Below are positions 5,741 to 40,116 of a stretch of DNA of 40,840 bases, one piece after another. The DNA is taken from positions 1 through 40,840 of the forward strand of contig JASLKI010000258.1 of NCBI GenBank assembly GCA_030747575.1, written 5' to 3'. How positions within the stretch are numbered: position 1 is the stretch's first letter; the number at the start of each line of letters is the position of its first letter. The translations under genes and the position numbers were made by a program. The stretch comes from Verrucomicrobiota bacterium. Lineage in GTDB: Bacteria > Verrucomicrobiota > Verrucomicrobiia > Limisphaerales > UBA1096. The notes under the pieces were generated by a model. The model ran no database searches. It saw nothing but the letters and a program-made list of their open reading frames with translations, and was not told the origin of the DNA.

Positions 5741-7566
5741 CACTCCTCCTTTTCTGGTGGGTGGAGTTTTTTGTGGAGCAACTGGGTCGGGGTGATGTCG
5801 TAGGAACGCTGCCAGGCGGCATTGGCCTCATCCGCTTGGCCAAGTTTGTTGAGAACGTTGCCGAGTTGCTCGAGCAGGTAGGAGTCCGGCGAGGTCATTT
5901 CGGCCTCCTGCTTGCGAAGGAGGCCAAGCGATTTTTCCCAATGCACCTTGGCCTCGTCCGCTTGGCCAAGTTGTTGGTGTGTGTCCCCGATGTGCTCGTG
6001 GATGGTGGAGTCGGGCTCGTCCTTCATCAACTCAGCGGCCCTCTGCAACTCAGCGAGCGCCTCGGTGAATTTGCCCTGCCTGAAGTACAGCCAGCCGAGG
6101 CTGTCCACGTACGAGGCGTTGTCGGGGGAAAGCTCGTTGGCCTTGGTGATGTGCTTGGCCGCCTCGTCAAGGTTGCGGTTGATGTCCGCCCACATGTAGC
6201 CGAGATAGTTCATGGCGTTGTGATATTCGGGAGACATCTCAATGGCTTTGTTGAAGGTCTCGTCGGAGGTTTCGTACTGGCGGTTTCGCTCGTAGGCTGC
6301 GCCAAGCTGGAAATAAAAAAAATGGGTGAGCCGGTTTTGCTCGCCGGCTTGTGCCAATTTCTCGGCGTCGAGCAGATTTTCGATGGCCTTGGGATATTGG
6401 TAGAGGGCGCTGTGGGCGAGTCCGGCGTAAAACTTGGTGATGAACCTGGGCTTGAACTGCTCACCGGCCTTTTTAAGTGTGGTGAGGGTGATGGTGGGCC
6501 TGTTTTGAAACAGCCGCACGCCGGCCAGTTCGTAATAGGCCAGCTCGAACTTGGGGTTAATTTTGAGGACTGTTTCGAAGTGGGCGGCCGCCTCTTCTAG
6601 TTTGTCGAGTTGGCGCTTGATGCCGCCAAGCACGAATAGCGCTCGCTCGTTGGTGGGGCGCTCGCGCAGGATGGCCTCGAGTTGCCGGGTGGCGTCCTGG
6701 GTCTTGTCCGCCCGCAGATAAAGCTCAGCCAATTGCTCGCGAACACCGATCAGGTTGGGGTTCAGTTCGATCAACTGGATGAACAACGCGATTGCCTTGT
6801 CACTCTCGCCCCAGACTTTGTAGTAGTCAGCCAGTCGATGGAGGATCAGCGGACTCTCCGGCTTGAGGGCGCTGGCCTTGTCGAGGCTTGTGATGATGCC
6901 AGCCTTGATCCTGTCCATCTTGGTCCGGGCAGCGATGCCGGTGTCGCGGTATAGGTCGGCGATGCCCAGCCAGAATTCCGGCTCGCTTTTGTCCTTGGTG
7001 AAGGCTGTGTCGAGCACCTTGAATGCGTCATCAAAGCGCTTGGCCGCGGTGTGGAGCTTGGCCAAGCCGCTAACGGAGATGAGTGTCGGGTTCGACGTGG
7101 CAAGGGCAATGCCGAAGGCGGCGATTGCTTCGTCCGGCTGGCTGGCTTGCTGATAGGCGAGGCCGAGCCACTCGTGCGTCGTCACGGATTCAGGGTTGGC
7201 CGCCTGGCCAAGGCGCAGAATCTCGATGGCCTTATCGGTTTTTTTCCGTAGGAGAAACCGGCGAGCGGCCTGGGCAACCACGGTCTCCTGCGTGGGATCC
7301 GCCTTAGCGGCAGCCTCGAGGTGCTTGAGGGAGTCGTTCGGCTTTCCTCGAAACTCAAAGCTGAGGCTGGTGAGGAAGTGGGTGAGACCCTCGATGCGGT
7401 TCCGGAACTCAGGATCCTCCGGGCCGGTTATTTCCTCGATATTGACGCCGTAAACGCCGGAGGGGACGCCGGGTCGCGGCTTGGCCAGGGGCGAAGTGGA
7501 GCACCCTGTGCCGGCCCACAACAGGGTCAGCCCGAGGAACAGTCTCGTATGTGAACCGCGTCTCAT
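5740..7566 (-). CDS. TPR-repeat protein with a lipoprotein-type signal peptide
   Basis: MRRGSHTRLFLGLTLLWAGTGC from ATG 7566 (the tracked start at 7599 is TTG). Multiple TPR-like A/L/Y-rich repeats and a repeated LGQADEA segment near the C-terminus. Confidence 0.85.
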   Translation of the reverse strand: MRRGSHTRLFLGLTLLWAGTGCSTSPLAKPRPGVPSGVYGVNIEEITGPEDPEFRNRIEGLTHFLTSLSFEFRGKPNDSLKHLEAAAKADPTQETVVAQAARRFLLRKKTDKAIEILRLGQAANPESVTTHEWLGLAYQQASQPDEAIAAFGIALATSNPTLISVSGLAKLHTAAKRFDDAFKVLDTAFTKDKSEPEFWLGIADLYRDTGIAARTKMDRIKAGIITSLDKASALKPESPLILHRLADYYKVWGESDKAIALFIQLIELNPNLIGVREQLAELYLRADKTQDATRQLEAILRERPTNERALFVLGGIKRQLDKLEEAAAHFETVLKINPKFELAYYELAGVRLFQNRPTITLTTLKKAGEQFKPRFITKFYAGLAHSALYQYPKAIENLLDAEKLAQAGEQNRLTHFFYFQLGAAYERNRQYETSDETFNKAIEMSPEYHNAMNYLGYMWADINRNLDEAAKHITKANELSPDNASYVDSLGWLYFRQGKFTEALAELQRAAELMKDEPDSTIHEHIGDTHQQLGQADEAKVHWEKSLGLLRKQEAEMTSPDSYLLEQLGNVLNKLGQADEANAAWQRSYDITPTQLLHKKLHPPEKEE

Positions 7567-7609
7567 GGTCGGGGGTTCACCCGGAACAGCGCTGCGCAAG
7601 CCCGGCAGG

Positions 7610-7711
7610 CTACTTCTGCCAGGTGCGCTTCTTGTGGCGATTGGCGCGGGATTTTTTCTTGCGCTTGTGCTTGTTGATTTTCGCTTTCCGGCGTTTCTTC
7701 AGTGAACCCAT
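7610..7711 (-). CDS. 33-aa highly basic peptide, bS22-like (AURKAIP1/COX24-type small ribosomal protein)
   Basis: My reverse-strand translation is MGSLKKRRKAKINKHKRKKKSRANRHKKRTWQK followed by a stop. It is below the ORF-track length cut-off. It resembles the 33-aa actinobacterial bS22 as I recall it (MGSVIKKRRKRM.KKKHRKLL...). Confidence 0.6.
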   Translation of the reverse strand: MGSLKKRRKAKINKHKRKKKSRANRHKKRTWQK

Positions 7712-9402: not shown

Positions 9403-9420
9403 CCAAGCGCTTGGCCAAGG
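9403..9420. repeat. Overlapping palindromes CCAAGCGCTTGG and CTTGGCCAAG in the purN-miaE divergent intergenic region
   Basis: ccaagcgcttggccaagg read directly. Both 12-mer and 10-mer palindromes are exact and share CTTGG. Confidence 0.9.
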
Positions 9421-9657: not shown

Positions 9658-10245
9658 ATGAAATTATCTCTTGAACTGACCGTGGCCACCAAGCCGGAGT
9701 GGGTTGTCGCCGTGATGGCTAACCTGCCGTCGTTCCTGCGGGACCACGCCGACTGCGAGCGCAAGGCCTCGGCGCTTGCGATGAGTCTCGTGGCCAAGTA
9801 CCCGGATCGACTCGAGATCATTCCGGAGTTGATCGCCACCGGCGTCGAGGAACTGGAGCATTTCCAGCAGGTTTACGAGGTGATGCGGGAGCGCGGCATT
9901 CCGTTGGCCAAGGAGATCGGGAAAGATCCGTACATCACGGCGCTGATGAAGCTGCTACACAGCGACTCGCTACGGCGGTTTCTCGACCGGCTGCTGTTGG
10001 CGTCGATCATTGAATGCCGGGGCGCGGAGCGTTTTCGCCTTGTCTCGGAGGCGCTAGACGACGACAAAGGGCTGCAGCAGTTCTACCACGACCTTTGGGT
10101 GTCCGAGGCCAGGCACGGGCATATTTTCGTCGGGATGGCCCTGGAGTATTTTGAGAAGGATAGGGTTTACTCACGGTTGACGGAATTGAATGAGGCCGAG
10201 GGCCGGATCGTCGACGGGTTGGAGTTGCGAGCCGCTTTGCACTGA
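9658..10245 (+). CDS. miaE: tRNA-(ms2io6A37)-hydroxylase
   Basis: DHADCERKASALAMSLVAKYPD, EELEHFQQV, ECRGAERF and WVSEARHG match the MiaE di-iron four-helix family. ATG at 9658 is preferred to the tracked start at 9637. Confidence 0.8.
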   Translation: MKLSLELTVATKPEWVVAVMANLPSFLRDHADCERKASALAMSLVAKYPDRLEIIPELIATGVEELEHFQQVYEVMRERGIPLAKEIGKDPYITALMKLLHSDSLRRFLDRLLLASIIECRGAERFRLVSEALDDDKGLQQFYHDLWVSEARHGHIFVGMALEYFEKDRVYSRLTELNEAEGRIVDGLELRAALH

Positions 10246-10258
10246 ACCAACTGACATC

Positions 10259-11620
10259 ATGAAAACCAAACAGAACAAGAGAGACATGACGCGCCGTCGA
10301 TTCATCGGCGCGAGTACGGTGGCCACCTTTGGCTTTCAGGTCGTGCCGAGCCGTGTGTTCGGTGCGAACAACCGTCTCGCCGTCGCCGGCATCGGCGCGG
10401 GCGGCAAGGGGCGGGCGGACATCAGCGGGGCGGCCAACGCCGGTTGCGACATCGTCGCACTGTGCGACGTGGACGAAGGCCGCGGCTCGGGGATGTTCAA
10501 TGCATACCCAAAAGCCAAGCGTTTCCCCGACTTCCGCGTGATGCTCGACAAGATGGGCGGCAGTATTGACGCCTGCACCATCTCCACGCCCGACCACACT
10601 CACGCCGCGGCAACCTCGATGGCGATGAAAATGGGCAAGCATTGCTACACGCAAAAACCGCTGACGCACGACGTGTACGAGGCGCGTTACCTGACCCACT
10701 TGGCCAAGCGCACCGGTGTCACTACGCAAATGGGAAACCAGGCGCACGCCGGCGAGCCGATCCGCCGGGCAGTCGAGTTGGTTCGCGCCGGCATCATCGG
10801 CAACGTCACCGAGGCGCACATCTGGACCAACCGCCCGATTTGGCCGCAGGGCATGACAGAGCGCCCGGTTAATGCCGACGTACCCAACGGCTTGGACTGG
10901 GATTTGTGGCTTGGACCGGCGTCGCACCGACCGTACGCCAAAGGGTACGTTCCGTTTTCGTGGCGCGGTTGGTGGGACTTTGGCACCGGGGCGCTTGGCG
11001 ACATGGCCTGCCACATCATGGACATGGCGTGGTGGAGTCTCGAGCTGGGTTCGCCGACGAGTGTGCGGGCCCGGCATGGCGGCAACACCGGGGAGAGCGC
11101 CCCGAACTGGGCCGTGATCGACTACCAATTCGGCTACCGTGGCAGCCGCCCGCCGGTGAAACTTGTCTGGTACGACGGCCAAAAGAACGGTGTGCAAAAC
11201 GCGCCGTCACTCGAGACCACCGGCGGCGTCAACATGGTTGCCAAGGGCAAAAATGGTTTCGGCTCTGTGTTGATCGGCGACAAGGGACGGATGTTTTTCA
11301 GTCGCAGAGGCACGGGCTGGAGGATTACCGGGCGCGACGAGGACGAGGTGAAACAGATTGAGGTCAACACGCCGAAAACACTGCCGCGAACCAAGGGCAA
11401 CTACGTCGAGTGGGTGAATGCCTCCACTGGGAACGGTCACAAGCCGCTGAGTCGTTTTGAGATCGCCGGGCCGTTCACAGAGATGGTGTTGCTGGGCAAC
11501 CTGGCTATCCGCGCTGGTGAGCCGGTGCAATGGGACGCGAAGGAGTTACGCTCGACCAACAGCGAAAAAGCCAATCGTTACGTTCGTCGGGAATATCGCC
11601 AAGGCTGGAAACTCTCATGA
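10259..11620 (+). CDS. Gfo/Idh/MocA family oxidoreductase with a twin-arginine (TAT) signal
   Basis: MKTKQNKRDMTRRRFIGASTVA TAT motif and LAVAGIGAGGKGRADI Rossmann motif. The internal ATG at 10259 is preferred because the tracked start overlaps miaE. Confidence 0.85.
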   Translation: MKTKQNKRDMTRRRFIGASTVATFGFQVVPSRVFGANNRLAVAGIGAGGKGRADISGAANAGCDIVALCDVDEGRGSGMFNAYPKAKRFPDFRVMLDKMGGSIDACTISTPDHTHAAATSMAMKMGKHCYTQKPLTHDVYEARYLTHLAKRTGVTTQMGNQAHAGEPIRRAVELVRAGIIGNVTEAHIWTNRPIWPQGMTERPVNADVPNGLDWDLWLGPASHRPYAKGYVPFSWRGWWDFGTGALGDMACHIMDMAWWSLELGSPTSVRARHGGNTGESAPNWAVIDYQFGYRGSRPPVKLVWYDGQKNGVQNAPSLETTGGVNMVAKGKNGFGSVLIGDKGRMFFSRRGTGWRITGRDEDEVKQIEVNTPKTLPRTKGNYVEWVNASTGNGHKPLSRFEIAGPFTEMVLLGNLAIRAGEPVQWDAKELRSTNSEKANRYVRREYRQGWKLS

Positions 11621-12522
11621 CCTTTCGCTTGGCACTGTGGCTTGCCGCTTGGGTTTGCGGGCAGGGGTTGCTGTTTTCCCAGCCAAGCGGTGAGCCGATC
11701 TTTTCATTCGGCGTCATCGCAGACTGCCAGTACTGCAATGTCAAGGTGCCCAAGGCAGCGGCGCGACAGTACCAGTTGTCCCCGAAAAAACTGACAGAGT
11801 GTGTCGAGCACCTGAACCGGCTCGATCTGCAGTTCGTTGTGCACCTCGGCGACTTCATCGACCGCGACTTCAAGAGTTTTGCGGACGTGGCGCCAATTTA
11901 CGGCAAGCTCAAGGCCGACCATTACCACGTCCTTGGTAATCACGATTTCAGCGTGGCCGACGAACACAAGGCCAAGGTGCCCACCGCGCTTGGCCTCAAT
12001 TCGCGGTATTACCAGTTTCGTTATCACGGATATCGATTCATCGCGCTGGACGGCAACGACGTCAGCCTGCACGCCTATCCGGCGAGTGACCCGCGCCACA
12101 AGGCCGCCGAGGTGGCTCACAGGAAACTGCCAAGCGGCACACCGACCTGGAACGGAGCCGTTGGGCAAGCGCAGCTCGACTGGTTAATAAAGGCGTTAAA
12201 CGAGGCCGAGCGGGCGGGGGAGCGGGTGGTTCTGTTCTGCCATTTTCCGGTGTACCCGGAGAACGTCCACAACCTTTGGAATGCCGCCGAGGTGCTGGCC
12301 GTGGCACGGGAGAATAGAAGTGTCGTGGCGTACATGAACGGCCACAATCACGCCGGAAATTACGGCCGCTTGGCCAACCGGCACTTTGTGACGTTTACGG
12401 GGATGGTGGACACGGAGGAGACGGCCTACGCCATCGTAAACGTCCACGCAGACCGGCTGGAGATCAAGGGGTTTGGCCGGCAGAAAAACATGACTCTGCC
12501 GTTAGCGGAGAACGGAGATTAG
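11617..12522 (+). CDS. Secreted calcineurin-like metallophosphoesterase (ADPRibase-Mn-like)
   Basis: ATGA overlap with the upstream stop. Signal-like MTFRLALWLAAWVCGQGLLFS. FGVIADCQY, HLGDFIDRD, GNHDF and NGHNH metallophosphatase motifs. Confidence 0.8.
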   Translation: MTFRLALWLAAWVCGQGLLFSQPSGEPIFSFGVIADCQYCNVKVPKAAARQYQLSPKKLTECVEHLNRLDLQFVVHLGDFIDRDFKSFADVAPIYGKLKADHYHVLGNHDFSVADEHKAKVPTALGLNSRYYQFRYHGYRFIALDGNDVSLHAYPASDPRHKAAEVAHRKLPSGTPTWNGAVGQAQLDWLIKALNEAERAGERVVLFCHFPVYPENVHNLWNAAEVLAVARENRSVVAYMNGHNHAGNYGRLANRHFVTFTGMVDTEETAYAIVNVHADRLEIKGFGRQKNMTLPLAENGD

Positions 12523-15804: not shown

Positions 15805-16833
15805 TCAATCCAGTCGCAGCCACGACGCTTTTAGGTAGGCGGGTTCGGTTTTGGTAACCGGAAAATCCGGGGGTTGAATCGCCGAAAACGCCTCCACGAT
15901 TTTTCTGCCGCTTCCCCGGATTCCTCTTCTGACCTCTTCCCTGAACTTTGCATTGCTCAAGCCCGCCGCATTGCAGCAGGCAAGCAGCATTCCGCCATTG
16001 CGAACCAGGGGTGCCGCCGCCTTGGTCAAGCTGCTGTAGTCCCGCTTGGCCAGAAACACCCCGGACTGCTTCGAGCGCGAAAACGTGGGCGGATCCAGGA
16101 TGACTAAGTCATGCCTTTCCCCGCGCTTGGCCAAGCGCTTCATCCACTCTAGGGCGTCTCCGTAGATGAAATCGTGATCCTTGGGGTTCACTTGGTTGAG
16201 TAGGAAATTTTCGCGGCCCCAGTCGAGGTATTTGCGCGAGAGGTCTAGGTTGATGGTTGTGGCTCCTGTACGTGCTGCGCAGACCGAGAACGAGCAGGTA
16301 TATGAGAAAGCATTCAGTACCGTGGCAGTGCCGGGGGGCAAATTAAACACGGCGAATCCGGGTTCAATGTGGTTTGAGAGAATGCGCTGCCGGTTCTCTC
16401 TCATGTCGAGGAATAGCCCTGTAGAGTATCCTTGTTTCAGGCTCAAGCGGTACTTCAGGCCATTCTCCATCACTTCAAATTCGTCCGGAGCCTCCAATCC
16501 CATGATGATCCGAGGTGATGCGGAGGTCGTGTTGCTTCGCTGCACCATTCGGTTTAGTTTTTTGTAATAAACCCCCTTGATCTTGAGGGTGCCTTTCCAC
16601 TTTATAGCAGCCTCGAGTTGCGGGTCGGTGAGTGGCTGGGGCGACTGTATCAGCAGGAAATCGCCGAGACGGTCCACGTACAGATCCTTCCAGCGATCCG
16701 CATGGCCATGAATAAGCCGATAGGCGTTGGTTTTCGGGTCGCGACCGGATCGCAGCTTGCGCGGCGTGCCGACGGAGGATGATGGTTTTGTGTTCAACGG
16801 TTTACCAAAAGTGCCATTGCTCCTTTTCGGCAT
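15805..16833 (-). CDS. Class I SAM-dependent rRNA methyltransferase (RlmI/RlmK-like)
   Basis: YRLIHGHADRWKDLYVDRLGDFLLIQ, VLNAFSYTCSFSV and DLVILDPPTFS. ATG at 16833 is chosen (the tracked 16905 start is GTG). The start is uncertain and overlaps the upstream gene by about 32 nt. Confidence 0.78.
   Translation of the reverse strand: MPKRSNGTFGKPLNTKPSSSVGTPRKLRSGRDPKTNAYRLIHGHADRWKDLYVDRLGDFLLIQSPQPLTDPQLEAAIKWKGTLKIKGVYYKKLNRMVQRSNTTSASPRIIMGLEAPDEFEVMENGLKYRLSLKQGYSTGLFLDMRENRQRILSNHIEPGFAVFNLPPGTATVLNAFSYTCSFSVCAARTGATTINLDLSRKYLDWGRENFLLNQVNPKDHDFIYGDALEWMKRLAKRGERHDLVILDPPTFSRSKQSGVFLAKRDYSSLTKAAAPLVRNGGMLLACCNAAGLSNAKFREEVRRGIRGSGRKIVEAFSAIQPPDFPVTKTEPAYLKASWLRLD
16123..16138. repeat. 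Perfect 16-bp palindrome GCGCTTGGCCAAGCGC inside the RlmI-like CDS
   Basis: Read directly. It encodes ...KRLAKRG... on the minus strand. Confidence 0.9.
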
Positions 16834-18639: not shown

Positions 18640-19935
18640 TTAATCCTCGAGGCGAATTTCGGCCGAATGGCCGTGGGCGTCGAGTCCCTCCATTTCGGCG
18701 AATGTCCGGATCGTTTCGATAGACTTGGCCAAGGCGAGCCTGTTGTATCTCACAACGCTGGTGCGGCGCTGGAATTGATCCACGGTCAAGCCGGCGAACG
18801 AAGCACCAGCGCCCCCGGTGGGCAGCGTGTGACTGGGGCCGGCCACGTAGTCGCCGAGGACGGTTGGCGTCCACGGGCCAACAAAAATTGCGCCGACGGT
18901 GGTGAGGGCTTTCACGGCCTGTCCGGGCTTTCGGAGCATCAGTTCGCAATGCTCCGGCGCGATGCGGTTGGCGAGGGCGATGCCGTCGTTGATCGATTTC
19001 ACGTGGATGAGCCACCCGTTTTTCCTGAGTGCCTTCCGAATGAACTCGCGGCGCGACAACGCGGGGAGTTGTTGCTTTAGTTCCCGCTGCACGTCGCCAA
19101 TGAGCTTTTTGGAATTGCTGGCCAACCAAACGCGCTCGTCGCCGGAGCCGTGCTCGGCTTGCGCGAGCAGGTCAGCGGCGGCGAACTTCGGGTTGGCCGA
19201 CGAGTCTGCGAGGATGAACATCTCGCTTGGCCCGGGCAGCAGGTCGATGGCCACGCGGCCAAACAACAGTCGCTTAGCAGCGACGACGTAGGCGTTGCCG
19301 GGGCCGAAGATTTTTTGCACGGGATGGATGGTCTTGGTTCCGCAAGCCATCGCGGCGATGGCCTGCGCGCCACCGACACAATACACCTCGGTGGCTCCGG
19401 CTAGAGCAAGCGCGGCGAGCAGGGCGGTATTGATCTGGCCGTCTTTACCGCAGGGAGTGCAGGCGACGATTTCGCGGCAGCCGGCAACCTTGGCCAGGGT
19501 GACGGTCATCAGCGTGGTCGATGCCAGGGGGGCTGTCCCGCCGGGAATGTACACGCCAACTCGTGCGAACGGATCGAACTTTTCACCGACCACGCCGCCT
19601 TGGGCGTTGCGGGCATGCCAGTTCTTCCGGAGGGATCGTTTTGCGAATAAGGTGACGTTGGCTTTTGCCAGGCGGATGGCCTTGCGGGTGCGGGCGTCGG
19701 TGGCGCCCCAAGCGCCAGCAAGTTCGGCTTGGCTGACGCGCAGTTTGCCCGGGGTAAGCTTGGCTCCATCGAACTTTTCCGTGTAATCAAGCAGTGCCTT
19801 GTCGCCGCGGCGCTGGACTGTGCGGATGATTTCAAGCGCTCGCTGCTCGACAACCGGATCGAAAAGGCTGGAGGCAGCGATGAGCTTGTTCAGTTTGGCG
19901 GAGAAGGCGGAATCCGTGTGCCGGATCAAATTCAT
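18640..19935 (-). CDS. hisD: Histidinol dehydrogenase
   Basis: LLAQAEHG, IAPEHCEL and GDYVAGPSHTLPTGG. 431 aa. Confidence 0.93.
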   Translation of the reverse strand: MNLIRHTDSAFSAKLNKLIAASSLFDPVVEQRALEIIRTVQRRGDKALLDYTEKFDGAKLTPGKLRVSQAELAGAWGATDARTRKAIRLAKANVTLFAKRSLRKNWHARNAQGGVVGEKFDPFARVGVYIPGGTAPLASTTLMTVTLAKVAGCREIVACTPCGKDGQINTALLAALALAGATEVYCVGGAQAIAAMACGTKTIHPVQKIFGPGNAYVVAAKRLLFGRVAIDLLPGPSEMFILADSSANPKFAAADLLAQAEHGSGDERVWLASNSKKLIGDVQRELKQQLPALSRREFIRKALRKNGWLIHVKSINDGIALANRIAPEHCELMLRKPGQAVKALTTVGAIFVGPWTPTVLGDYVAGPSHTLPTGGAGASFAGLTVDQFQRRTSVVRYNRLALAKSIETIRTFAEMEGLDAHGHSAEIRLED

Positions 19936-20092: not shown

Positions 20093-23000
20093 ATGTCCCG
20101 AACAGCCAAGAAAAAAAAGCCGATCGTCAGTTCAGCGAAAGCGTCTAAGTACGACGCGCACCACGCTGTCATCAACAACACCTACGGCGACTTCGCGGAC
20201 CTGCGCCACCAGTTGTCCGAATCCAAGGAGGACGTGGCCGAGCGGGCCAAGCTGCTGCAGATTTTTTCGGCGTGCAACGATTCGCAGCGTTCGTGGCTTT
20301 TGCTGGAGGATTATTTCGACAAGCTCAACCTGGCCCGCAAGGATTTCAGTCAGGACGACTGGTGGGGCGGCATGGCGAAGAGCAGCGGGGACGTTCGGTT
20401 AGAGGACTTGGCGCTGGTATTCATGAAGTCGGGGCGCTCGGTGCCCAACGAGTTGATGTCGTATGCCAACTTCACGCGCTTTGCCGAAGTGGAGCAGGCT
20501 GAAAAAGACCATCAACTTTTCAAGGGGCTTGAGGAATGGATGTTCCCTCCAACGCCGGTTCATCTCGACGCGCCCCGTGCTGCGTTGCGTGTGGTGGGGC
20601 GTCTTGTTGAGGACACGGAGTTGCCGGGCTTGTACAAGCTTGGGGTGGAGATTCACGTCATACGCCCCCGCACCGGCGATCGTGTGAAGACGCTGGACGA
20701 CATGGCTGACCTGACCATGCGAGCCGCTCACGAGCAGGAGTTGTTTCCCTCCAACGACTGGTCGTTTATCCGGTGGTCTTCCGGTGTCAGGCATGACTAC
20801 GACACGGAGGCGGAGCTGATTCCGCTGGGTGGTGCGGAGTTGCTGAAGTGGCTGGTGCAGTGGGGGAAATCCGGGCGAATTCATCTCGAGGGCGAAAAGA
20901 AGCCGATACAGTTTCTGGGGCGGATCATCGAGATGGAGCCCCACTTGGAGAAGGCTGAATCGGATCTGTTCTTCACACATGAGGTCAAACTGCCCGACAA
21001 GAAAACCTGCACCATGTCCGAAGTGAGATTTTTTGCCGGTGACCCCACGCTGGCTCTGATCGGGGGCGAGGTATTTCTTCTGCGCAACTCTCCCTCGCAC
21101 GAGGTGCTTGGGAATTGGGCCAAGATGAAAAGGGCGCCGGTGTCGAAGCTGACGCATCGCCTGCTCACCAAACTACGCAAGATCACCACCAACAACGGGG
21201 TGAATTGGGAGCAGCTTTGTAAGACGCACAAGGCGACACCACGATTTGTCTTTGAGATGGCCAGTGACACCGTTCGACTGAAACTCCTGGCCAAGAGCGA
21301 ATCAGACAAGAGTCTCTGGCAGTGGAACGGCCATGAATGGGCTCGGGAACAATCAGGGAAACAAAAACCGAACAAACCGGAAGTACTCGATGACGATCGT
21401 CTTGAGGCGGCCGTCGGATGGCTCAAGCGGCTGGACTGGTTCACGCCGGAGCCGGGCCTTTGGGTGGGAGACGCCAACCCTCTTTTTCTGGAGAGCCTGC
21501 ACGCCGCCTGGCCGGACAAGCCTGACGCGGAGTATCTTGGTGACACGGAATTCAAGCGACTGTTCCTCCAGCCCAAGCGCCTCAAGCCCAAGTTAATCGT
21601 CCGGGGTAGCGGCATCGATTGGCTTTCTGTCTCCGCTGAGTGGGAGGAGGAGGGGCTGAAGCTGACTGAGCGCGATCTCCAGCAACTCGCAGCTGCCAGC
21701 GGCAACTTTGTCAATCTACCCGATGCCGGCTGGGTTCAGTTGGATCAAAAGGCCGTGCAGGATGCACAGGAGGCGATGGCGGACCTTGGGGTGGATGGCT
21801 TGTCCGCAGTCGAACAGAAGGTCGGGTTGGAGCAGGCTGCGCACCTGGACGAGGACGGCTTGGCCAAGTTTGTCCCATCCGAGGAGCTGGAGCAGTTGCG
21901 GGGACGCCTGGATGAATTCGAGGGGGTTGAACACACTGAACTGCCGGATGGGATTCACGCCCAGTTGCGCCCGTACCAGGTGGAAGGCTTTAGTTTTCTT
22001 TGCCACTTGGCCAAGTTCAAGCTGGGCGGAATTCTTGCGGACGATATGGGTCTAGGCAAGACGCTGCAAACGCTTGCTTGGCTGTTGTGGTTGAGGACCA
22101 GTCGCCGGAAGAATGCCAAGACAAAGCCGACGTTGGTTGTCTGTCCCGCCTCGGTTTTGCACAACTGGCGTCGTGAATCGGAACGGTTCACCCCAAAGAT
22201 GAAGGTGCTTGTCTTGGAAAGCGGCCGAGCCCGGCACAACCTTCGCAAACGAATTCCCGACTATGACATCGTGGTTACCAATTATTCAATCCTTCGCCGT
22301 GACCTTGACGAGTTGGCCAAGTTTGCTTTCCGCGCCATCGTGCTCGACGAGGCGCAGTTCATCAAGAATCCCGGGGCGCAGGTGACCAAGTCGGTCAAGG
22401 AACTCAAGGCCGACCACAAGTTGGCGCTGACCGGCACGCCGATCGAGAACCGCATGCTCGATCTGTGGAGCATCGTAGATTTTGTCCAGCCCAACTATCT
22501 CGGCAACCAGCAGCATTTCAGCCAGGTTTACGATTTGCGGGCGTCGGAAAAGGACGAGAACGCCGCCCGGCTTGGGCGCAAAAAGCTCTCGGCCAAGCTG
22601 CGGCCGTTGTTGCTGCGCCGCGTCAAGAAACAGGTTGCCAAGGATCTTCCTGACCGGATCGAGCAGCGGCTAGACTGTGAGTTGCCCGAAGAGCAGCGCA
22701 AATTGTACCTCGCCGAGTTGAAGCGCAGCCGTGAACAGGTCATGAAAGCCGTTCAGCAGAAGGGCGTTGCCAAGAGTAAGATGCACGTGCTTGCTGCACT
22801 GACACGGTTGCGGCAGATCTGTTGTCATCCTGGCCTGGTTGGTAGCGACACGGAATCCGGCAAAATGGAAACGCTATTCGAGCTGGTCGAACCACTGCTT
22901 GAGGAGGGTCATAAGGTGCTGGTATTCAGTCAGTTTGTGCGGATGCTTCAGATTCTAGAGAAGGAATGCTCAGACAGGGGGATGCCCACCTATATGCTGA

Positions 23001-23372: not shown

Positions 23373-23388
23373 TTGGCCAAGCGCTTGG
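23373..23388. repeat. Overlapping palindromes TTGGCCAA and CCAAGCGCTTGG in the 30-bp gap between the convergent SNF2 and DUF1214-like genes
   Basis: gtttggccaagcgcttgg read directly. It lies between the stop at 23362 (+) and the stop at 23393 (-). Confidence 0.9.
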
Positions 23389-25608: not shown

Positions 25609-26382
25609 TCAACGAACGTACAGCGTCCCGCCATCGACGGGGAAGGGGGCACCGGTGATGAACGACGCCTCGTTGCTGCAGAGGAACACCGCCATCGCGC
25701 CAACTTCCGCCGGTGCGCCCATTCGGCCAATTGGCTGGTACTCGGAAAGTTTCCTGAACATCTCTGCCTGGTTGTCTGGATAATTCTCCGCGATGAAGCC
25801 ATCGACGAACGGCGTGTGGATGCGGCCCGGCAAAATCGCGTTGCAGCGGATGTTGTCGTGCAGATGATCCTTGGCCACCGAGTAGGTCATCGCAAGCACG
25901 CCGCCCTTGCTGGTGCTATAGGCGAGTCGATCGTTGATCGCCATCGTCGCCACCGTCGAGGCGATGTTGACAATCGCCCCCCCGCCGCTCTTGAGCATCT
26001 GCCGGACGCCGCCCTTGAGGCAGTTGAACACGCCTTTCAAGTTCACGCTCATCACGCAGTCAAAATCCTCCTCGCTGGTGTTCGTGATGTTGCCGACGTG
26101 CGCGATGCCGGCGTTGTTCACAAGGCAGTCCAGACCGCCGCGGTCACTGCCAAGCTTGTCAAAAACTTCCTGCACTTGGCCGTGATTCGACACGTCGCAC
26201 TCCACAGCATCCGCTTGGCCACCGGCGGAGCGGATCTGCTCGACCGTGTCGTTGGCGGCCTCAACATTAACCTCGAGAACATCGACAAACGCACCCTGCT
26301 TGGCCAAGGCGAGGGCGATCGCTTTGCCAATGCCCGATCCCGCGCCGGTCACGACAGCAGACTTTTCCGAAAGGCTGAACAT
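25609..26382 (-). CDS. SDR family oxidoreductase (FabG-like)
   Basis: AVVTGAGSGIGKAIA, NNAGI and YSTSKGGV catalytic motifs. The internal ATG at 26382 gives the usual SDR length of about 257 aa. Confidence 0.88.
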   Translation of the reverse strand: MFSLSEKSAVVTGAGSGIGKAIALALAKQGAFVDVLEVNVEAANDTVEQIRSAGGQADAVECDVSNHGQVQEVFDKLGSDRGGLDCLVNNAGIAHVGNITNTSEEDFDCVMSVNLKGVFNCLKGGVRQMLKSGGGAIVNIASTVATMAINDRLAYSTSKGGVLAMTYSVAKDHLHDNIRCNAILPGRIHTPFVDGFIAENYPDNQAEMFRKLSEYQPIGRMGAPAEVGAMAVFLCSNEASFITGAPFPVDGGTLYVR

Positions 26383-33552: not shown

Positions 33553-33571
33553 GCGGTTTTTTTAGATAGCA

Positions 33572-36405: not shown

Positions 36406-36422
36406 GATATTAGGACTCATTT

Positions 36423-37706
36423 ATGGCCACCTTCCAATACGAAGCCGTCAATAACAAGAGTGGTAAGACTGAGAAGGGCGAACTACCCGCCGCCAGTCAG
36501 CCCGAGGCGTTGGCTCGGTTGCAGGAGATGGGGTTGCATCCCACCAAGGTGGAGCAAGCCAAGGCCGCCTCAAAGAGAACCAAACCGGGGAAAGGTAAAA
36601 AGGGTGCCAAAAAGGGTGTCGGGCAGATGGAGATCAACATCCCTGGCCTTGGGGGCAGGGTTAAGGAAAAGATTCTCACGATCTTCACCCGGCAGTTGGC
36701 CCAGTTGACTTCCGCCGGCTTGCCTCTTCTCACCGGTCTAAAGGTGCTTCAGAAACAGGAAAAGGACGCCACATTAAGGCGCGTCTTGGGTGAAATGTCC
36801 GAGGTGATCGAGGGCGGCGGCACGTTCTCCGAGGGTTTGGCTCAGCACCCCAAGGTTTTCAACAAGCTGTTTGTCAGCATGGTCAAAGCGGGTGAGTTGG
36901 GTGGTGTCCTTGAGGTGGTCCTCGACCGCTTGGCCATGTTCATGGAAAAAGCCATGAAAATTAAAGGCAAGGTCAAAGCTGCCATGTTTTATCCGATAGC
37001 GGTGTTGGTGGTTGCGGTGGTGATCATGGGCATCCTTTTGGTGTTCGTCATCCCTAAATTCAAGGACGTGTTTTCTGACATGCTGGGTAAGGACGGGTTG
37101 CCGGATTTTACCGAATTCGTGTTATCCATTAGTGACACGGTTCGCTTGAACGCCATGGGGACAATGTGCGGTGTTTTTGCCTGTTTTTTCACGTTTTCGA
37201 TGATTGGCCGGACAAACTTTGGCCGTTACATTCTCGATAAAATGAGCCTTGTTTTCCCTGTCATTGGCCCCGTGGTGGAGCGGGTGGCGATTGCCCGTTT
37301 TGCACGGACGCTTGGCACTCTAATCAATTCCGGTGTGCCGATTCTCCAGGCGCTCAATATCGTCAAGGACACTTCAGGCAACGTGGTCGTGTCGCGTGCG
37401 GTTCAGGATGTCCACGACAGCGTGAAGGAGGGTGAAACCATCGTCGCACCGCTGGATGCTTCCCGCGTGTTCCCTCCGATGGTTATAAGCATGGTGGATG
37501 TCGGCGAAAAAACCGGTGATATGCCACAGATGCTCGAGAAAATCGCCGACACCTACGATGAGGAGGTTGATCGCGCCGTGGAATCTCTCACATCGTTGAT
37601 CGAGCCCATCATGATTGTTTTCCTCGCCGTAATCGTTGGCGGTATCGTGATCGCCATGTTCCTGCCTTTGATTGTCATGATCGAGAGCTTGGGCGGGGCG
37701 GAGTAG
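36423..37706 (+). CDS. pilC: Type IV pilus platform protein (GspF/PilC family)
   Basis: MATFQYEAVN start, duplicated T2SSF-type domains (FTRQLAQLTSAGLPLL and FARTLGTLINSGVPIL), and three TM segments. Confidence 0.9.
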   Translation: MATFQYEAVNNKSGKTEKGELPAASQPEALARLQEMGLHPTKVEQAKAASKRTKPGKGKKGAKKGVGQMEINIPGLGGRVKEKILTIFTRQLAQLTSAGLPLLTGLKVLQKQEKDATLRRVLGEMSEVIEGGGTFSEGLAQHPKVFNKLFVSMVKAGELGGVLEVVLDRLAMFMEKAMKIKGKVKAAMFYPIAVLVVAVVIMGILLVFVIPKFKDVFSDMLGKDGLPDFTEFVLSISDTVRLNAMGTMCGVFACFFTFSMIGRTNFGRYILDKMSLVFPVIGPVVERVAIARFARTLGTLINSGVPILQALNIVKDTSGNVVVSRAVQDVHDSVKEGETIVAPLDASRVFPPMVISMVDVGEKTGDMPQMLEKIADTYDEEVDRAVESLTSLIEPIMIVFLAVIVGGIVIAMFLPLIVMIESLGGAE

Positions 37707-37768: not shown

Positions 37769-39220
37769 ATGGGCATGAACTGTAAGGCAGACAAAAGACA
37801 GCTCACCCGCCGTTTGGCCGAGATCGTTGGCAAAGATGCCGTGCTTGACGACGAGCGGGAACTCGTGGTGTACGAGTGCGACGCCTACACGCTCCAAAGG
37901 AACCCCCCAACTGCAGTTGTGCTGCCCCGATCCACACAGGAAGTGGCGGCGGTCGTCCGCCTTTGCGCCGAGATGGGCGTGCCCGTCATCCCGCGCGGAG
38001 CCGGCACCAGTCTCAGCGGTGCAGTACTTGCGGTCGATGGCGGCGTGATGATCGCGCTCACCCGGATGAACCGGGTGCTAAACATCGATCCGCGCAACCG
38101 CCGGGCACTCGTCGAGGCGGGCTGCGTCAACGCGTGGATAACCCGTAACGCGTCGGCGCACGGATTGTTTTATGCGCCGGATCCATCGAGCCAGACGGCC
38201 TGCACGATCGGCGGCAACATCGCTACCAACTCCGGCGGGCCGCACACGCTGAAAAACGGGGTCACTACCAATCACGTGCTCGGCTACGAGATGGTGTTGC
38301 CGGACGGTGCAATTGAATGGCTTGGCGTTGAACCCGATGGCGGTGAGGAGGTGGCCGGGTTCGATTTGCGCGGCGCGGCGATCGGCTCGGAGGGGATGTT
38401 CGGTGTCGTGACGAGGGTGTTGGTTCGCCTCATGAAAACGCCGCCGGCGTTCAAGACCTTCCTCTGTGTTTTCGAAAGTGTGGACGAGGCCAGCCAGGCT
38501 GTGAGCGGCATTATTGCCGCGGGGATTGTGCCAGCAGCACTGGAGATGATGGATCAACTTATCACCCAGGCGCTTGAGGAGGCGTATCACTTCGGCTTCC
38601 CGCTCGATGCCGGTGCGGTGCTGATCGTTGAGCTGGACGGCTTGACCAAGGGCGTGGAGCAACAGGCCAAGCGGGTCGAGGAGGTTTGCCGCCAAAACAA
38701 CGCCAGCGAAGTGCGTTTGGCCAAGGACGATGCTGAGCGCACCGCCCTGTGGAAATGCCGCAAACGCGCCTTCGGTGCGATCGGTCGCCTGAGCCCCAAC
38801 TACGTCACGCAGGACGGCGTCGTGCCGCGAAGCAAACTGCCGGAAATCATGCGTTTCATCAGCTCCGTGAGTGACAAATACGAACTGCGAATCCCCAACG
38901 TCTTCCACGCCGGCGACGGCAATATTCACCCGCTGATCCTATACGATGAACGCGATCCCGACCAAGTGAAACGGGCATTGCAGGCGGGGCACGACATTCT
39001 GGGAAAATGCATCGAACTCGGCGGCAGCGTCACCGGCGAGCACGGCATCGGTGCCGAAAAAATCGACTTCATGGCGAAGCAATACAGCGGGGATGACTTA
39101 GACGCCATGCAACAGTTGCGTCACGTTTTTGATCCGAACAGACGCTCTAACCCTCACAAAATGTTCCCCGGCGCCAAGCGCTGCGCCGAGTTCGCCCAGA
39201 AGAAACAAATTCCTGCATGA
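37769..39220 (+). CDS. glcD: Glycolate oxidase subunit GlcD (FAD-linked oxidase)
   Basis: VVLPRSTQEVAAVVRLCAEMGVPVIPRGAGTSLSGA FAD-binding PCMH motif, then GSVTGEHGIG. 483 aa. Confidence 0.85.
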   Translation: MGMNCKADKRQLTRRLAEIVGKDAVLDDERELVVYECDAYTLQRNPPTAVVLPRSTQEVAAVVRLCAEMGVPVIPRGAGTSLSGAVLAVDGGVMIALTRMNRVLNIDPRNRRALVEAGCVNAWITRNASAHGLFYAPDPSSQTACTIGGNIATNSGGPHTLKNGVTTNHVLGYEMVLPDGAIEWLGVEPDGGEEVAGFDLRGAAIGSEGMFGVVTRVLVRLMKTPPAFKTFLCVFESVDEASQAVSGIIAAGIVPAALEMMDQLITQALEEAYHFGFPLDAGAVLIVELDGLTKGVEQQAKRVEEVCRQNNASEVRLAKDDAERTALWKCRKRAFGAIGRLSPNYVTQDGVVPRSKLPEIMRFISSVSDKYELRIPNVFHAGDGNIHPLILYDERDPDQVKRALQAGHDILGKCIELGGSVTGEHGIGAEKIDFMAKQYSGDDLDAMQQLRHVFDPNRRSNPHKMFPGAKRCAEFAQKKQIPA

Positions 39221-40116
39221 CGATCAAGCCGGGCTCCATTTCAGAGTTACAGGAATTGCTGCCGCAATCGCAGCGAGTGGAGGAAGTGTCACTGGAGGCT
39301 GTCGCTGAACTCATCGAGCATGTGCCAGAAGACATGACGGCAACGGTGCATGCCGGTATGTCCTTGAGCGAATTTCAGTCGCGCTTAGGCAAGGTGGGCC
39401 AGTGGTTGCCGGTAGACCCACCGCATCCGCAAGTTGTTACAATTGGCGAGTTGTTGGCCTGCAACCTCAACGGACCGAGGCGTTTCGGTTGCGGGGCGAT
39501 TCGCGACTGGGTTATCGGCATGGCCGTTGTGCTGCCGGACGGACGGCTGATTCGCAACGGCGGCAAGGTGGTCAAGAATGTTGCCGGATTCGATCTGTGC
39601 CGATTGTTCGTCGGCGCGAAAAATGAACTGGGCATCATCGTTGAGGCGGCGTTCAAGTTGCTGCCATTGCCGGAAGCGGAGGCACACTTGGCCAAGCCGT
39701 GCGAGTCGCTTGGCCAAGCAGAGGAAGTGCTCGAAAAAATCTGGGCCTCCGATCTGCAGCCGACGGTGCTCGATCTGCACCGGGTCGATGGGAAACCTCT
39801 TACATTGGTTGCTGGTTTCGCCGGGCCAAGCGCGGATATTGAGGCCCAGTCGGGTGCTGCGAACGCACTTGGTATTGTTGTAGAGACGTCACTCGATTAC
39901 GACGCCCGATTTCGCCAAACGGCTCCCTGCTTTACGTCAGTTGCTCCAGGGAAATTGATTTCAACTTTGCGGAGCCTGGGCGATGAGTCGTTCGTAGCCC
40001 GTGCGGGGAATGGTGTGATTTATCATCCCAGCGCTAAGCCAATGGGGGTTCCGTCGCTGGATTTACAGAAGAGGGTAAAGGGCATTTTTGACCCGAAAGG
40101 AGTGCTGGTCGGATGA
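39217..40116 (+). CDS. glcE: Glycolate oxidase FAD-binding subunit GlcE (short form)
   Basis: ATGA overlap with the glcD stop. NGGKVVKNVAGFDLCRLFVGA is typical of GlcE. It sits between glcD and glcF. Confidence 0.72.
   Translation: MTIKPGSISELQELLPQSQRVEEVSLEAVAELIEHVPEDMTATVHAGMSLSEFQSRLGKVGQWLPVDPPHPQVVTIGELLACNLNGPRRFGCGAIRDWVIGMAVVLPDGRLIRNGGKVVKNVAGFDLCRLFVGAKNELGIIVEAAFKLLPLPEAEAHLAKPCESLGQAEEVLEKIWASDLQPTVLDLHRVDGKPLTLVAGFAGPSADIEAQSGAANALGIVVETSLDYDARFRQTAPCFTSVAPGKLISTLRSLGDESFVARAGNGVIYHPSAKPMGVPSLDLQKRVKGIFDPKGVLVG

Follow-up and report, generated by a model that had tools for sequence, protein, structure and literature searches.

Why does one short palindrome, the 8-mer TTGGCCAA, recur throughout the GC-rich part of a 40,840-nt stretch of DNA from a Verrucomicrobiota bacterium (the whole of which is called the window here)? 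The initial annotation had taken it for a palindrome resembling HIP1 of cyanobacteria that codon preference does not explain, and each of the tests it named that was run supports this. The motif is a highly iterated palindrome (HIP), a word of duplex DNA whose centre, TGGCCA, leans towards invariance and which is not embedded in a longer repeat. It is found about once per kb across the genes and spacers of a marine Verrucomicrobiota clade, in an excess far above what codon or amino-acid usage accounts for.

The motif in the window

A recount matched every one of the coordinates given previously for 17 copies of TTGGCCAA and for the 12 that extend to the 10-mer CTTGGCCAAG. Dinucleotide-preserving shuffles yield 1.24 copies of the 8-mer (maximum 4), the same order of magnitude as the 0.5 that had been roughly estimated, and 0.04 copies of the 10-mer. 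The copies, together with a second palindrome, are distributed as follows.

5835..5844, minus strand, TPR gene: CTTGGCCAAG, Leu-Gly-Gln, in an internal repeat shared with the 5961 copy
5961..5970, minus strand, TPR gene: CTTGGCCAAG, Leu-Gly-Gln, repeat partner of the 5835 copy
7057..7066, minus strand, TPR gene: GCTTGGCCAAGC, Leu-Ala-Lys
9403..9419, divergent spacer between the formyltransferase gene and miaE: compound CCAAGCGCTTGGCCAAG, the second palindrome CCAAGCGCTTGG plus the 10-mer
9904..9911, plus strand, miaE: TTGGCCAA (as GTTGGCCAAG), Leu-Ala-Lys
10699..10708, plus strand, Gfo/Idh/MocA oxidoreductase gene: CTTGGCCAAGCGC, Leu-Ala-Lys-Arg
12370..12377, plus strand, metallophosphoesterase gene: CGCTTGGCCAAC, Leu-Ala-Asn; CTTAGCCAAG in the sister clade
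16123..16138, minus strand, RlmI-like methyltransferase gene: full 16-nt palindrome GCGCTTGGCCAAGCGC, Arg-Leu-Ala-Lys-Arg
18724..18733, minus strand, hisD: CTTGGCCAAG, Leu-Ala-Lys (residues 402-404), common to the sister clade
21859..21868, plus strand, SNF2 helicase gene: CTTGGCCAAG, Leu-Ala-Lys
22006..22015, plus strand, SNF2 helicase gene: CTTGGCCAAG, Leu-Ala-Lys, window-only; a one-base variant in the sister clade
22313..22320, plus strand, SNF2 helicase gene: TTGGCCAA (as GTTGGCCAAG), Leu-Ala-Lys
23373..23388, convergent (3'-3') spacer, 11 nt past the SNF2 stop: compound TTGGCCAAGCGCTTGG, the 16-mer used as metagenome probe
26299..26308, minus strand, short-chain dehydrogenase gene: CTTGGCCAAG, Leu-Ala-Lys
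38717..38724, plus strand, glcD: TTGGCCAA (as TTTGGCCAAG), Leu-Ala-Lys
39687..39696, plus strand, glcE: CTTGGCCAAGCC, Leu-Ala-Lys
39707..39720, plus strand, glcE: CGCTTGGCCAAGCA, Leu-Gly-Gln-Ala, starting 22 nt after the previous glcE copy
40600..40611: second palindrome CCAAGCGCTTGG, built from the same half-sites, everted around a CG spacer

The 17 copies share no similarity in their flanks (median identity 0.31) except for the pair at 5836 and 5962 (0.54), which bears out the caveat that these two lie in an internal repeat of the TPR gene; there are therefore 16 independent copies rather than 17, and the excess is not limited to duplicated segments. Given their density, the half-sites CTTGG and CCAAG should be joined directly, in that order, 0.33 times, but 12 such junctions are present. 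The one-mismatch variant CTGGCCAAG, noticed at 4440, 7204, 31558 and 31570, is present there and at eight further sites (12 in total against 0.56 expected). The absence of copies from the AT-rich segment 1-3277, to which attention had been drawn, is not significant and carries no weight, only ~1.5 being expected there at window density.

In 28 CDS of the window, synonymous-codon shuffles give 2.7 copies of TTGGCCAA against 15 observed and 0.73 of CTTGGCCAAG against 11, with 0 of 1000 shuffles reaching the observed value in either case. Eleven of the 21 Leu-Ala-Lys tripeptides are written TTGGCCAAG, against 1.4 expected from independent codon frequencies.

Recurrence and consensus in related marine loci

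Scanning metagenomes with the 16-mer TTGGCCAAGCGCTTGG retrieved 120 mostly non-redundant marine stretches (109 similarity groups), three proteins of which carry the names of Verrucomicrobiota MAGs. Counts in relatives, which had been suggested as a check, show that the excess recurs in marine relatives within the Verrucomicrobiota, over about 110 loci unrelated to one another; the motif was absent from the nearest GTDB representatives among the matches listed (HisD identity 64% or less). Unfiltered loci contain 614 copies per Mb of the 8-mer and 445 of the 10-mer, and a motif-rich subset of 82 loci (556 kb, probe sites masked before counting) contains 438 copies of the 8-mer and 330-331 of the 10-mer (about 600/Mb), absolute densities that are biased upwards, the motif having served to find the loci and half-site density to filter them. 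Within this subset, CTTGGCCAAG is the top 10-mer, at 83 times its order-3 Markov expectation, and all the remaining top words are sub-words of GCGCTTGGCCAAGCGC. Gaps between sites in these short loci are roughly exponential, with a surplus of short ones, a mean of ~1 kb and no regular spacing. A strict one-tag-per-fragment arrangement would predict a regular pattern, which this spacing does not resemble.

The motif-rich loci also define the consensus. The flank trend to GCTTGGCCAAGC reported previously is real and reaches further, to a palindrome of 14-16 nt, sCGCTTGGCCAAGCGs, with symmetric flanks (G 73% at -1, C 67% at -2, C 70% at +1, G 63% at +2). The exact 10-mer, with 330 copies, outnumbers all 30 of its one-base variants combined (274), and these variants are scarcest within the central TGGCCA.

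A pressure that acts on DNA

The pressure that maintains the motif is exerted at the level of DNA rather than of protein or translation, as is apparent from the way in which any frame that the motif hits is recoded (TTG-GCC-AAG, CTT-GGC-CAA or TGG-CCA-AGC). In the window, the initial annotation had counted 12 copies read TTG-GCC-AAx, three read xTT-GGC-CAA and two intergenic (9411 and 23373), which was confirmed, and none in the third register, which does not hold in the larger sample, where the Trp-Pro-Ser frame accounts for 12 of 331 copies of the 10-mer. The remainder comprise 151 Leu-Ala-Lys, 110 Leu-Gly-Gln and 58 intergenic copies. The excess over codon-preserving shuffles likewise persists beyond the window: 420 genes without a probe site contain the 10-mer 215 times against 12.7 in synonymous shuffles. 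In these genes, Leu-Ala-Lys is written TTGGCCAAG in 144 of 246 cases (15 expected), Leu-Gly-Gln as CTTGGCCAA in 94 of 139 (3 expected) and Trp-Pro-Ser as TGGCCAAGC in 13 of 17 (0.5 expected). Codon choice for Leu-Ala-Lys, which had been proposed as a diagnostic, thus departs ~8-10 fold from independence in window and metagenome genes alike.

Where coding constraint is absent, the motif reaches its fullest symmetric form. Spacers of the motif-rich loci are denser than genes (17.5% of copies in 11.2% of the sequence), their copies are nearly all cgCTTGGCCAAGcg, the fullest consensus, and the density of compound copies is 3.2/kb in spacers between converging genes and 0.47/kb between diverging ones. 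The pressure is also strong enough to alter amino acids and to make the proteome richer in Leu-Ala-Lys and Leu-Gly-Gln, observed/expected ratios being 3.6 for LAK, 3.65 for LGQ, 22 for LGQA and 16 for LAKR in motif loci, and 0.9, 1.4, 1.5 and 0.4, respectively, in outgroup loci.

Turnover, gain and phages

Copies turn over among close strains. Relative to a sister clade that is 95% identical, nine copies are common, two are window-only and eight are sister-only, and new copies come from substitution at existing near-matches. Judged by outgroup residues, the HisD changes A177G and L178Q (GCTCTA to GGCCAA) are derived in the sister clade, as is HisC S194A together with AAA to AAG. The strain alignment has many clusters of three or more mismatches (38 in 21 kb), so these multi-base gains are only suggestive of a directed process. 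Sites show 13 mismatches in 224 positions against a background of 4.9% and, in this small sample, no visible conservation beyond that of the average position. Contigs of bona fide P22-like phages contain the half-site at 5-6x and several full copies, which fits a host-wide mutation or repair bias better than an uptake drive, unless the phages are temperate.

What maintains the motif?

The most prosaic explanations fare worst. That the motif is a by-product of amino-acid, codon or codon-pair preference, or consists of copies of a dispersed repeat or mobile element, has a negligible chance of being correct. TTG, GCC and AAG do account for 24% of Leu, 47% of Ala and 61% of Lys codons in the window, and the sense-strand pair GCC-AAG is used in 53 of 74 Ala-Lys dipeptides. 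However, shuffles keeping the protein and per-gene codon usage give 15-17 fold fewer 10-mers, the one DNA word is imposed on three frames whose codon pairs are unrelated, whichever strand is coding, and non-coding DNA is denser and closer to the full consensus. The copies have unrelated flanks, and 82% of them lie within conserved housekeeping genes. On our reading, both forms of this explanation are thereby refuted. Dcm-type methylation of CCWGG, in which deamination of C(m5C)TGG would produce CTTGG (and CCAAG opposite it) and the palindrome would derive from CCTGGCCAGG, is very improbable. It is in line with the depletion of CCTGG/CCAGG (0.52 of composition expectation, 0.4-0.6 of synonymous-shuffle expectation), the 2.1-2.7x enrichment of CTTGG/CCAAG, and the fact that CCTGG in place of CTTGG is both the commonest variant and the commonest difference between orthologs, one symmetric pair (CGCCTGGCCAGGCG versus CGCTTGGCCAAGCG) among them. 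Yet CTAGG/CCTAG, which deamination would also yield, shows no enrichment (0.10 of composition, 0.63 of order-2 expectation), and documented gains include transversions. As a sufficient cause we take it to be refuted, since half-sites enriched 2-3x cannot give a 36-fold head-to-head pairing or an 83-fold 10-mer excess, the symmetric CG flanks are unexplained and CCTGGCCAGG, from which the word would derive, has only 6 sites against 330, although it may still add to the half-site background.

Sites for an abundant nucleoid or chromosome-organising protein, in line with the structural role that Xu et al. 2018 (PMC5861425) suggested for HIP1, are an improbable explanation. Dimeric DNA-binding proteins typically recognise sites with dyad symmetry of this length (14-16 bp), and the motif is distributed genome-wide, within and between genes; against this, kilobase-scale spacing is not regular in loci too short to reveal a 10-90 kb periodicity, quick turnover between 95% identical clades argues against positionally constrained sites, and presence in phage contigs is not predicted. 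Known palindromes of this kind (parS, matS, Noc and SlmA sites) come in tens rather than thousands per genome. Only slight credence can be given to a Chi-like recombination signal that shields DNA ends from RecBCD/AddAB-type degradation. Density and over-representation are of the order known for Chi sites, and presence in phages would be adaptive, but Chi is asymmetric and co-oriented with replication, whereas the word is a perfect palindrome whose half-sites show no strand skew (67 versus 60 on the plus strand) despite a uniformly positive GC skew in the window.

A more serious contender, although still a minority possibility, is that the central TGGCCA is the target of a solitary DNA methyltransferase, the motif being abundant through strand discrimination in mismatch repair, as Elhai proposed for methylated HIP1 sites, or through short-patch repair that converts near-matches. 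A type II-like hexamer with flanks is what cyanobacterial HIPs have (PMC4390886), and the low tolerance of the centre, the mean spacing of about 1 kb, and the phage contigs, whose bias is expected of a process acting on any DNA replicating in the host, all fit; depletion of CCWGG (0.4-0.6 of shuffle expectation) shows, further, that DNA in the clade is under sequence-specific pressure. A hexamer-specific enzyme, however, does not account for a consensus of 14-16 nt. TGGCCA is enriched only ~1.3x outside the full word, and GGCC, at 0.9-1.0 of shuffle expectation, is not enriched. Deamination-type variants (CTTGGTCAAG/CTTGACCAAG, CTTGGCTAAG/CTTAGCCAAG) are not depleted relative to transversion variants, whereas very-short-patch-like conversion should deplete them. 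An insensitive regular-expression scan of ~1.1 Mb of partly overlapping sequence (window, strain and sister loci, and the 120 stretches), a small part of any genome, detected no C5-methyltransferase or Vsr signature.

The best explanation, to which we give about an even chance, is that this HIP-type duplex-DNA word is a self-tag kept by drive or selection. Dyad symmetry over 14-16 bp suggests that a two-fold symmetric (dimeric) protein reads the motif as double-stranded DNA, and the density of ~1/kb, turnover, reshaped proteome and compound copies at convergent 3' ends together favour a tag that marks 'self-DNA'. This tag would build up either by drive coupled to recombination or because selection acts weakly on many sites that can stand in for one another, and its action may be methylation-dependent. 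Uptake or recombination would be the likeliest concrete mechanism, at less than even odds, with methylation and repair coming next. The connection with DNA uptake and with the type IV pilus genes of the window, raised in the initial annotation, is still speculative, although nothing contradicts it. To our knowledge, characterised uptake sequences are all asymmetric, and we know of no documented competence in the phylum Verrucomicrobiota.

Comparison with HIP1

DNA uptake sequences and, in recent work, HIP1 have been proposed to accumulate by the route envisaged here for the self-tag. Cyanobacterial HIPs, including HIP1 (G-CGATCG-C), each have a cognate methyltransferase (PMC4390886). HIP1 sites are more conserved than the average position (PMC5861425), whereas the sites described here, in a small sample, are not visibly so. 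In both, a type II-like hexamer core is extended by flanks and the central positions are the least tolerant of deviation, which makes the motif described here a close analogue, in another phylum, of the enigmatic HIP1.

Abundance of the palindrome in the window

The initial annotation had described a highly iterated palindrome with the 8-mer core TTGGCCAA at 17 positions; all 17 are exact, where dinucleotide-preserving shuffles give 1.24, and 12 of them extend to the 10-mer palindrome CTTGGCCAAG, for which such shuffles give 0.04. Its tally of reading frames was reproduced against a gene set checked with Pfam and public gene calls, with 12 copies read as TTG-GCC-AAx, three as xTT-GGC-CAA and two intergenic, and the near-variant CTGGCCAAG is indeed common (12 vs 0.56 expected). 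The 14-mer CGCTTGGCCAAGCG occurs 19 times with at most two mismatches (0.42 expected), and the commonest words of 8 and 10 nt in the window are without exception contained in one self-complementary sequence, ...GCGCTTGGCCAAGCGC.... Enrichment is about 2-3-fold for each of the half-sites CTTGG and CCAAG, and their head-to-head pairing CTTGG|CCAAG is found 12 times when half-site density predicts 0.33; the everted pairing CCAAG-CG-CTTGG is found four times. GGCC alone is not enriched in the window (0.89). Maximal-order Markov models return an observed/expected ratio of about 1 at every length and are uninformative for such nested words. In the window, which was not picked through the motif and has 53-62% G+C outside its AT-rich left end, the density is 320-450 per Mb.

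The excess does not stem from duplicated segments, since the flanks of the copies resemble each other only at the random level (median identity 0.31). The sole exception is the pair at 5836 and 5962, which lies, as first noted, in a repeat of the TPR gene. With this pair set aside, the flank comparison also speaks against a longer repeat as carrier. The following features of the window are referred to below.

Features of the window
1667-3142, Ca2+-dependent PI-PLC gene, in the AT-rich segment (Pfam E 8e-107)
9403-9419, 23373-23388 and 40600-40611, second palindrome CCAAGCGCTTGG and compound forms, also found in many of the metagenome loci fetched with the probe described below
14890-15801, DUF1559/N-methyl pseudopilin gene
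31840-37706, type IV pilus motor cluster: two PilB-type ATPases of 570 and 573 aa (pilB, pilB2), pilT and pilC

In the compound copy at 9403-9419, the palindrome is joined to the second palindrome, which has the same half-sites in everted order; these window sites and many probe-fetched loci also include tandem arrays of 12 nt, for example TTGGCCAAGCGCTTGGCCAA. The left end of the window (1-3277) has 36-39% G+C vs about 58% elsewhere and carries a 160-aa ORF besides the PI-PLC gene. It is not a chimera, since independent contigs of the species (L093, L091) have this junction as well, and it is probably an island gained by horizontal transfer. The absence of the motif from this segment is statistically not meaningful.

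Spread through a marine clade

Many proteins from marine metagenomes match HisD of the window at 94-99% identity, including two from MAGs named as Verrucomicrobiota or Verrucomicrobiales, and the DUF1559/N-methyl pseudopilin gene fits a placement in the Verrucomicrobiota. When the 16-mer TTGGCCAAGCGCTTGG, common to both intergenic copies of the window, was used as a probe on metagenome contigs, it matched at least 120 stretches, which form 109 similarity groups and have 53-64% G+C. Three of ten test proteins from these stretches had an exact public match, in all three cases a protein of a Verrucomicrobiota MAG. The 82 loci retained by half-site density (556 kb, probe sites masked) contain 438 copies of the 8-mer, about 790 per Mb, and about 330 of the 10-mer, about 600 per Mb; over the 120 listed loci, unfiltered, the values are 614 and 445 per Mb. 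Since these loci were picked through the motif itself, such absolute densities are too high. Among the 10-mers of this clade sample, CTTGGCCAAG ranks first, at 83 times its order-3 Markov expectation. An assembly or adaptor artefact was rejected: in conserved genes the copies are in frame, and this is so in NCBI, JGI, ENA, Tara and long-read assemblies that are independent of each other.

Relatives in GTDB were found by HisD alignment, the closest among the matches listed having 64% identity, and they comprise subdivision-3-like and other Verrucomicrobiota; these listed relatives show no enrichment, with 0-2 8-mers per 21 kb. In the closest of them (L011), the commonest palindromic 8-mer is GCCCGGGC, with six sites in 21 kb as a raw count. 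In the cultured Pelagicoccus sp. SDUM812005, half-sites are in excess (CTTGGC/GCCAAG 42 vs 13, CTTGG/CCAAG 108 vs 45) although the full palindrome is absent; the same bias may act here in a weaker or different form.

Codon and amino-acid usage

Neither codon nor amino-acid preference accounts for the abundance. When synonymous codons were shuffled 1000 times within each of 28 window genes, with proteins and per-gene codon usage held fixed, none of the shuffles had as many copies as are observed in the coding sequence, whether of the 8-mer (15 vs 2.7) or of the 10-mer (11 vs 0.73), which upholds the excess claimed in the initial annotation. The choice of codons for Leu-Ala-Lys (LAK) departs from independent usage, TTGGCCAAG being used in 11 of the 21 window cases when 1.4 are expected. 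Ala-Lys is written GCCAAG in 53 of 74 cases (21 expected) and Leu-Gly is written CTTGGC in 23 of 94 (7.9 expected), so that two unrelated pairs of codons, read from opposite strands, both lean towards complementary hexamers.

The same holds in 420 clade genes without a probe site (397 kb), where the 10-mer is present 215 times vs 12.7 under synonymous shuffling and the 12-mer 107 times vs 3.3. In these genes, LAK is written TTGGCCAAG in 144 of 246 cases (15 expected), Leu-Gly-Gln (LGQ) is written CTTGGCCAA in 94 of 139 (3 expected) and Trp-Pro-Ser (WPS) is written TGGCCAAGC in 13 of 17 (0.5 expected). An artefact of codon, codon-pair or amino-acid usage was rejected, as a 15-17-fold excess is left after synonymous shuffling and codon-order shuffles speak against it too. 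The peptides themselves are inflated in the motif-bearing clade, while control tripeptides stay at about 1-fold.

Peptide frequency relative to amino-acid composition (motif-bearing clade; outgroup loci)
LAK: 3.6-fold; 0.9-fold
LGQ: 3.65-fold; 1.4-fold
LGQA: 22-fold; 1.5-fold
LAKR: 16-fold; 0.4-fold

Anatomy and placement of copies

In the clade sample, the 10-mer is preceded by G at -1 (73%), C at -2 (67%) and G/C at -3, with the mirror image following it on the 3' side, and these symmetric flanks yield the consensus sCGCTTGGCCAAGCGs. Dyad symmetry over 14-16 bp would imply a two-fold symmetric reader of duplex DNA. Exact 10-mers in the clade sample (330) outnumber all 30 one-base variants combined (274); such variants are rarest at the central TGGCCA (positions 3-8) and commonest at position 2/9, as CCTGGCCAAG.

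Context of the 10-mer in 331 clade copies
LAK: 151
LGQ: 110
WPS: 12
Intergenic: 58

Most copies (82%) thus lie within coding sequence, and the intergenic share is 17.5% vs 11.2% of the sequence. Intergenic copies are nearly always the full cgCTTGGCCAAGcg. Compound copies reach 3.2 per kb in convergent 3'-3' spacers vs 0.47 per kb in divergent ones, a bias of about 7-fold, and this hints that they act at the 3' ends of transcripts or close to them. Copies are about 1 kb apart on average, and the gaps follow a roughly exponential distribution with a surplus of short gaps that includes the 12-nt tandem arrays.

Gain, loss and turnover of sites

A sister clade, 95% identical to the window in nucleotide sequence and represented by Fram Strait contigs (L097-L101), can be compared with it over the same 21 kb (8641-29778): nine sites are shared, two are lacking from the sister clade and eight are extra, for a total of 17 copies of TTGGCCAA there vs 11 in the window. 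The SNF2, hisC and metallophosphoesterase genes are each split into two calls in the two long-read contigs (L100, L101). Two of the gains in the sister clade have been polarised. The HisD codons GCT-CTA (Ala-Leu) were changed to GGC-CAA (Gly-Gln), and the L178Q replacement thereby affects a position at which nine of ten outgroups conserve Leu or another hydrophobic residue. In HisC, AGC-AAA became GCC-AAG, introducing an Ala seen in no outgroup, while the synonymous change from AAA to AAG completes the motif. These changes show that sites are gained by substitution and that gain is able to override protein conservation. No templated 'writing' is claimed, because clusters of at least three mismatches are common (38 in 21 kb) and motif columns change at about the average rate.

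The 104 site comparisons among strains 99.3-99.9% identical include one gain and one loss, close to the rate expected under neutrality. Ortholog pairs 72-96% identical share 17 sites and differ at 11, although sharing is inflated by ascertainment; the unshared sites differ most often by CTTGG/CCTGG.

Phages

A scan of IMG/VR with the 14-mer returned two groups of related contigs in which half-sites are enriched 5-8-fold, each with 2-4 extra full 8-mers. The first group is genuinely a P22-like phage: it encodes a major head protein (E 8e-66), Hc3 (head closure, E 2e-95) and a DNA transfer protein, and has a P22-coat-like best match. The palindrome in such contigs may help to predict their hosts, with marine Verrucomicrobiota as the group indicated.

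Viral contigs with the motif (about 49-55% G+C)
L104, L120, L156 and L157, from IMG/VR
L119, L172, L187, L198 and L206, further viral contigs

Possible functions

What has been found is a clade-wide, DNA-level, highly iterated palindrome. That it acts as a self-tag for uptake or recombination is a tentative proposal made by analogy, since its density, its preference for spacers and 3' ends, its reading frames, the proteome inflation and the turnover of sites match DNA uptake sequences; these features also match the current transformation-linked reading of the cyanobacterial palindrome HIP1 (recent work including a PCC 7002 preprint). Such a signal would possibly be gated by methylation, and the molecular drive behind it would be strong enough to change residues that are conserved in housekeeping enzymes. 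In a fuller and rather doubtful version, this would be the first 'self-DNA' tag identified in Verrucomicrobiota, a symmetric uptake or recombination signal that is recognised by a dimeric receptor linked to the type IV pilus or pseudopilin machinery of the phylum, spread by drive and copied by temperate phages. A mechanism of methylation and repair, as read for HIP1, is likewise conceivable if somewhat doubtful: the architecture of a hexamer plus flanks, the central constraint and the presence in phages match that reading (PMC4390886), and members of the HIP class have a cognate DNA methyltransferase, as a rule a solitary one, with a target site that is part of the palindrome (Elhai 2015, PMC4390886). 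A regular-expression scan of the window, of its loci in other strains and in the sister clade, and of the 120 listed stretches from metagenomes found no C5-methyltransferase or Vsr signatures, although these partly overlapping genome fragments amount to about 1.1 Mb, too little to weigh. The tag and the methylation-repair mechanism are not mutually exclusive.

Other explanations carry less weight. A role in structuring the nucleoid is improbable; regular kilobase-scale spacing was not found, the gaps having a coefficient of variation of 1.15. Chi and KOPS are also over-represented words on the 8-mer scale that are read anywhere in the genome, genes included, by DNA-processing machines, yet they are asymmetric, strand-skewed and co-oriented with replication. 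The present word is symmetric and its half-sites are unskewed, at 67 and 60 on a strand along which GC skew is positive throughout, which makes a Chi-like function very unlikely and a skewed word of this type untenable. In the motif-rich loci and the window CDS, the Dcm/EcoRII-type site CCWGG reaches no more than 0.4-0.6 of the number expected from synonymous shuffles, a depletion which suggests restriction avoidance or some other site-specific pressure separate from the palindrome. Despite this depletion, CTAGG is not enriched, and the pairing of half-sites and the flank statistics also stand against Dcm-type deamination as sole cause, which can hardly be credited. Equally hard to sustain is a coding artefact: one confined to a single frame is contradicted by three frames and the spacers converging on the same DNA word.

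The data provide a clear case of DNA shaping protein, with LAK and LGQ inflated 3.6-fold, LGQA 22-fold and a conserved HisD residue replaced. The palindrome is also a sharp compositional marker that lends itself to contig binning for the clade, flagging of foreign DNA and prediction of phage hosts.

Comparison with known systems

DNA uptake sequences such as the Neisseria DUS GCCGTCTGAA and the Pasteurellaceae USS AAGTGCGGT direct preferential uptake by competent cells through a pilin-type receptor (a ComP-like minor pilin), and both are asymmetric. The verrucomicrobial word shares with them a density of about one copy per kb in both orientations, a location mostly in genes, in coding-allowed frames and with measurable effects on peptide content, and an enrichment in spacers, above all at convergent 3' ends, as paired or compound copies. 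Its sites are likewise gained by substitution and polymorphic among strains, and the genome also has the type IV pilus genes pilB, pilT, pilB2 and pilC. It thus agrees with this class in density, orientation, frame bias and 3'-end preference. However, it is a perfect palindrome, whereas all DUS and USS known to us are asymmetric, and it is also found in P22-like phage contigs. It therefore resembles uptake sequences in behaviour, without their asymmetry, and would be the first palindromic uptake-type sequence if the tag reading is true. REP/BIME elements, too, have a palindromic unit and compound copies in 3' spacers, but REPs are imperfect, 30-40 nt long and confined to spacers, in contrast to the 10-16 nt word here.

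For three decades the function of HIP1 has not been settled, and the motif has been regarded as peculiar to cyanobacteria. The cyanobacterial palindromes have been described by Robinson et al., Elhai 2015 (PMC4390886) and Xu et al. 2018 (PMC5861425), HIP1 being GCGATCGC at 300-2700 copies per Mb (PMC4390886), a range that includes the densities of the clade sample. Like HIP1 and other HIPs, the verrucomicrobial word is a perfect short palindrome around a type II-like hexamer, and, as for HIP1, there are hundreds of copies per Mb with tens-fold over-representation, scattered in genes and spacers rather than within longer repeats, and specific to a clade. Palindromic extensions past the core, a centre least tolerant of change and the use of particular reading frames are further points in common. 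Unlike HIP1, it is centred on TGGCCA rather than GATC or CGATCG, belongs to another phylum and has a longer consensus, firm over 10 nt and graded over 14-16 nt. For HIP1, a periodicity of 10-90 kb has been reported. The turnover of sites seems rapid here, on a small sample, while HIP1 sites are reported to be conserved between genomes beyond neutral expectation (Xu 2018, PMC5861425). HIP1 proper was rejected, the sequence being CTTGGCCAAG and the source names Verrucomicrobiota. The likeness to HIP1 seen in the initial annotation is therefore borne out at the level of phenomenon: hyper-abundance, a dispersal that codon usage does not explain and dyad-symmetric extensions with a constrained centre place the palindrome within the phenomenological definition of a HIP, outside that of HIP1 itself.

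Literature matches to the 10-, 12- and 14-mers were primers and oligonucleotides only, and no iterated palindrome in Verrucomicrobia was among the top-ranked keyword matches. The palindrome is a further case of the HIP kind, for all members of which the mechanism is unsolved. Together with the recent data linking HIP1 to transformation, the tag reading, if true, would suggest a single function common to highly iterated palindromes of unrelated phyla. An equally extreme and unrelated palindrome in an abundant, uncultured marine clade of Verrucomicrobiota is an independent natural replicate of HIP1, and the functions that have been proposed (methylation-guided repair, chromosome structure and DNA uptake) can now be tested through the genes that co-occur with both motifs.
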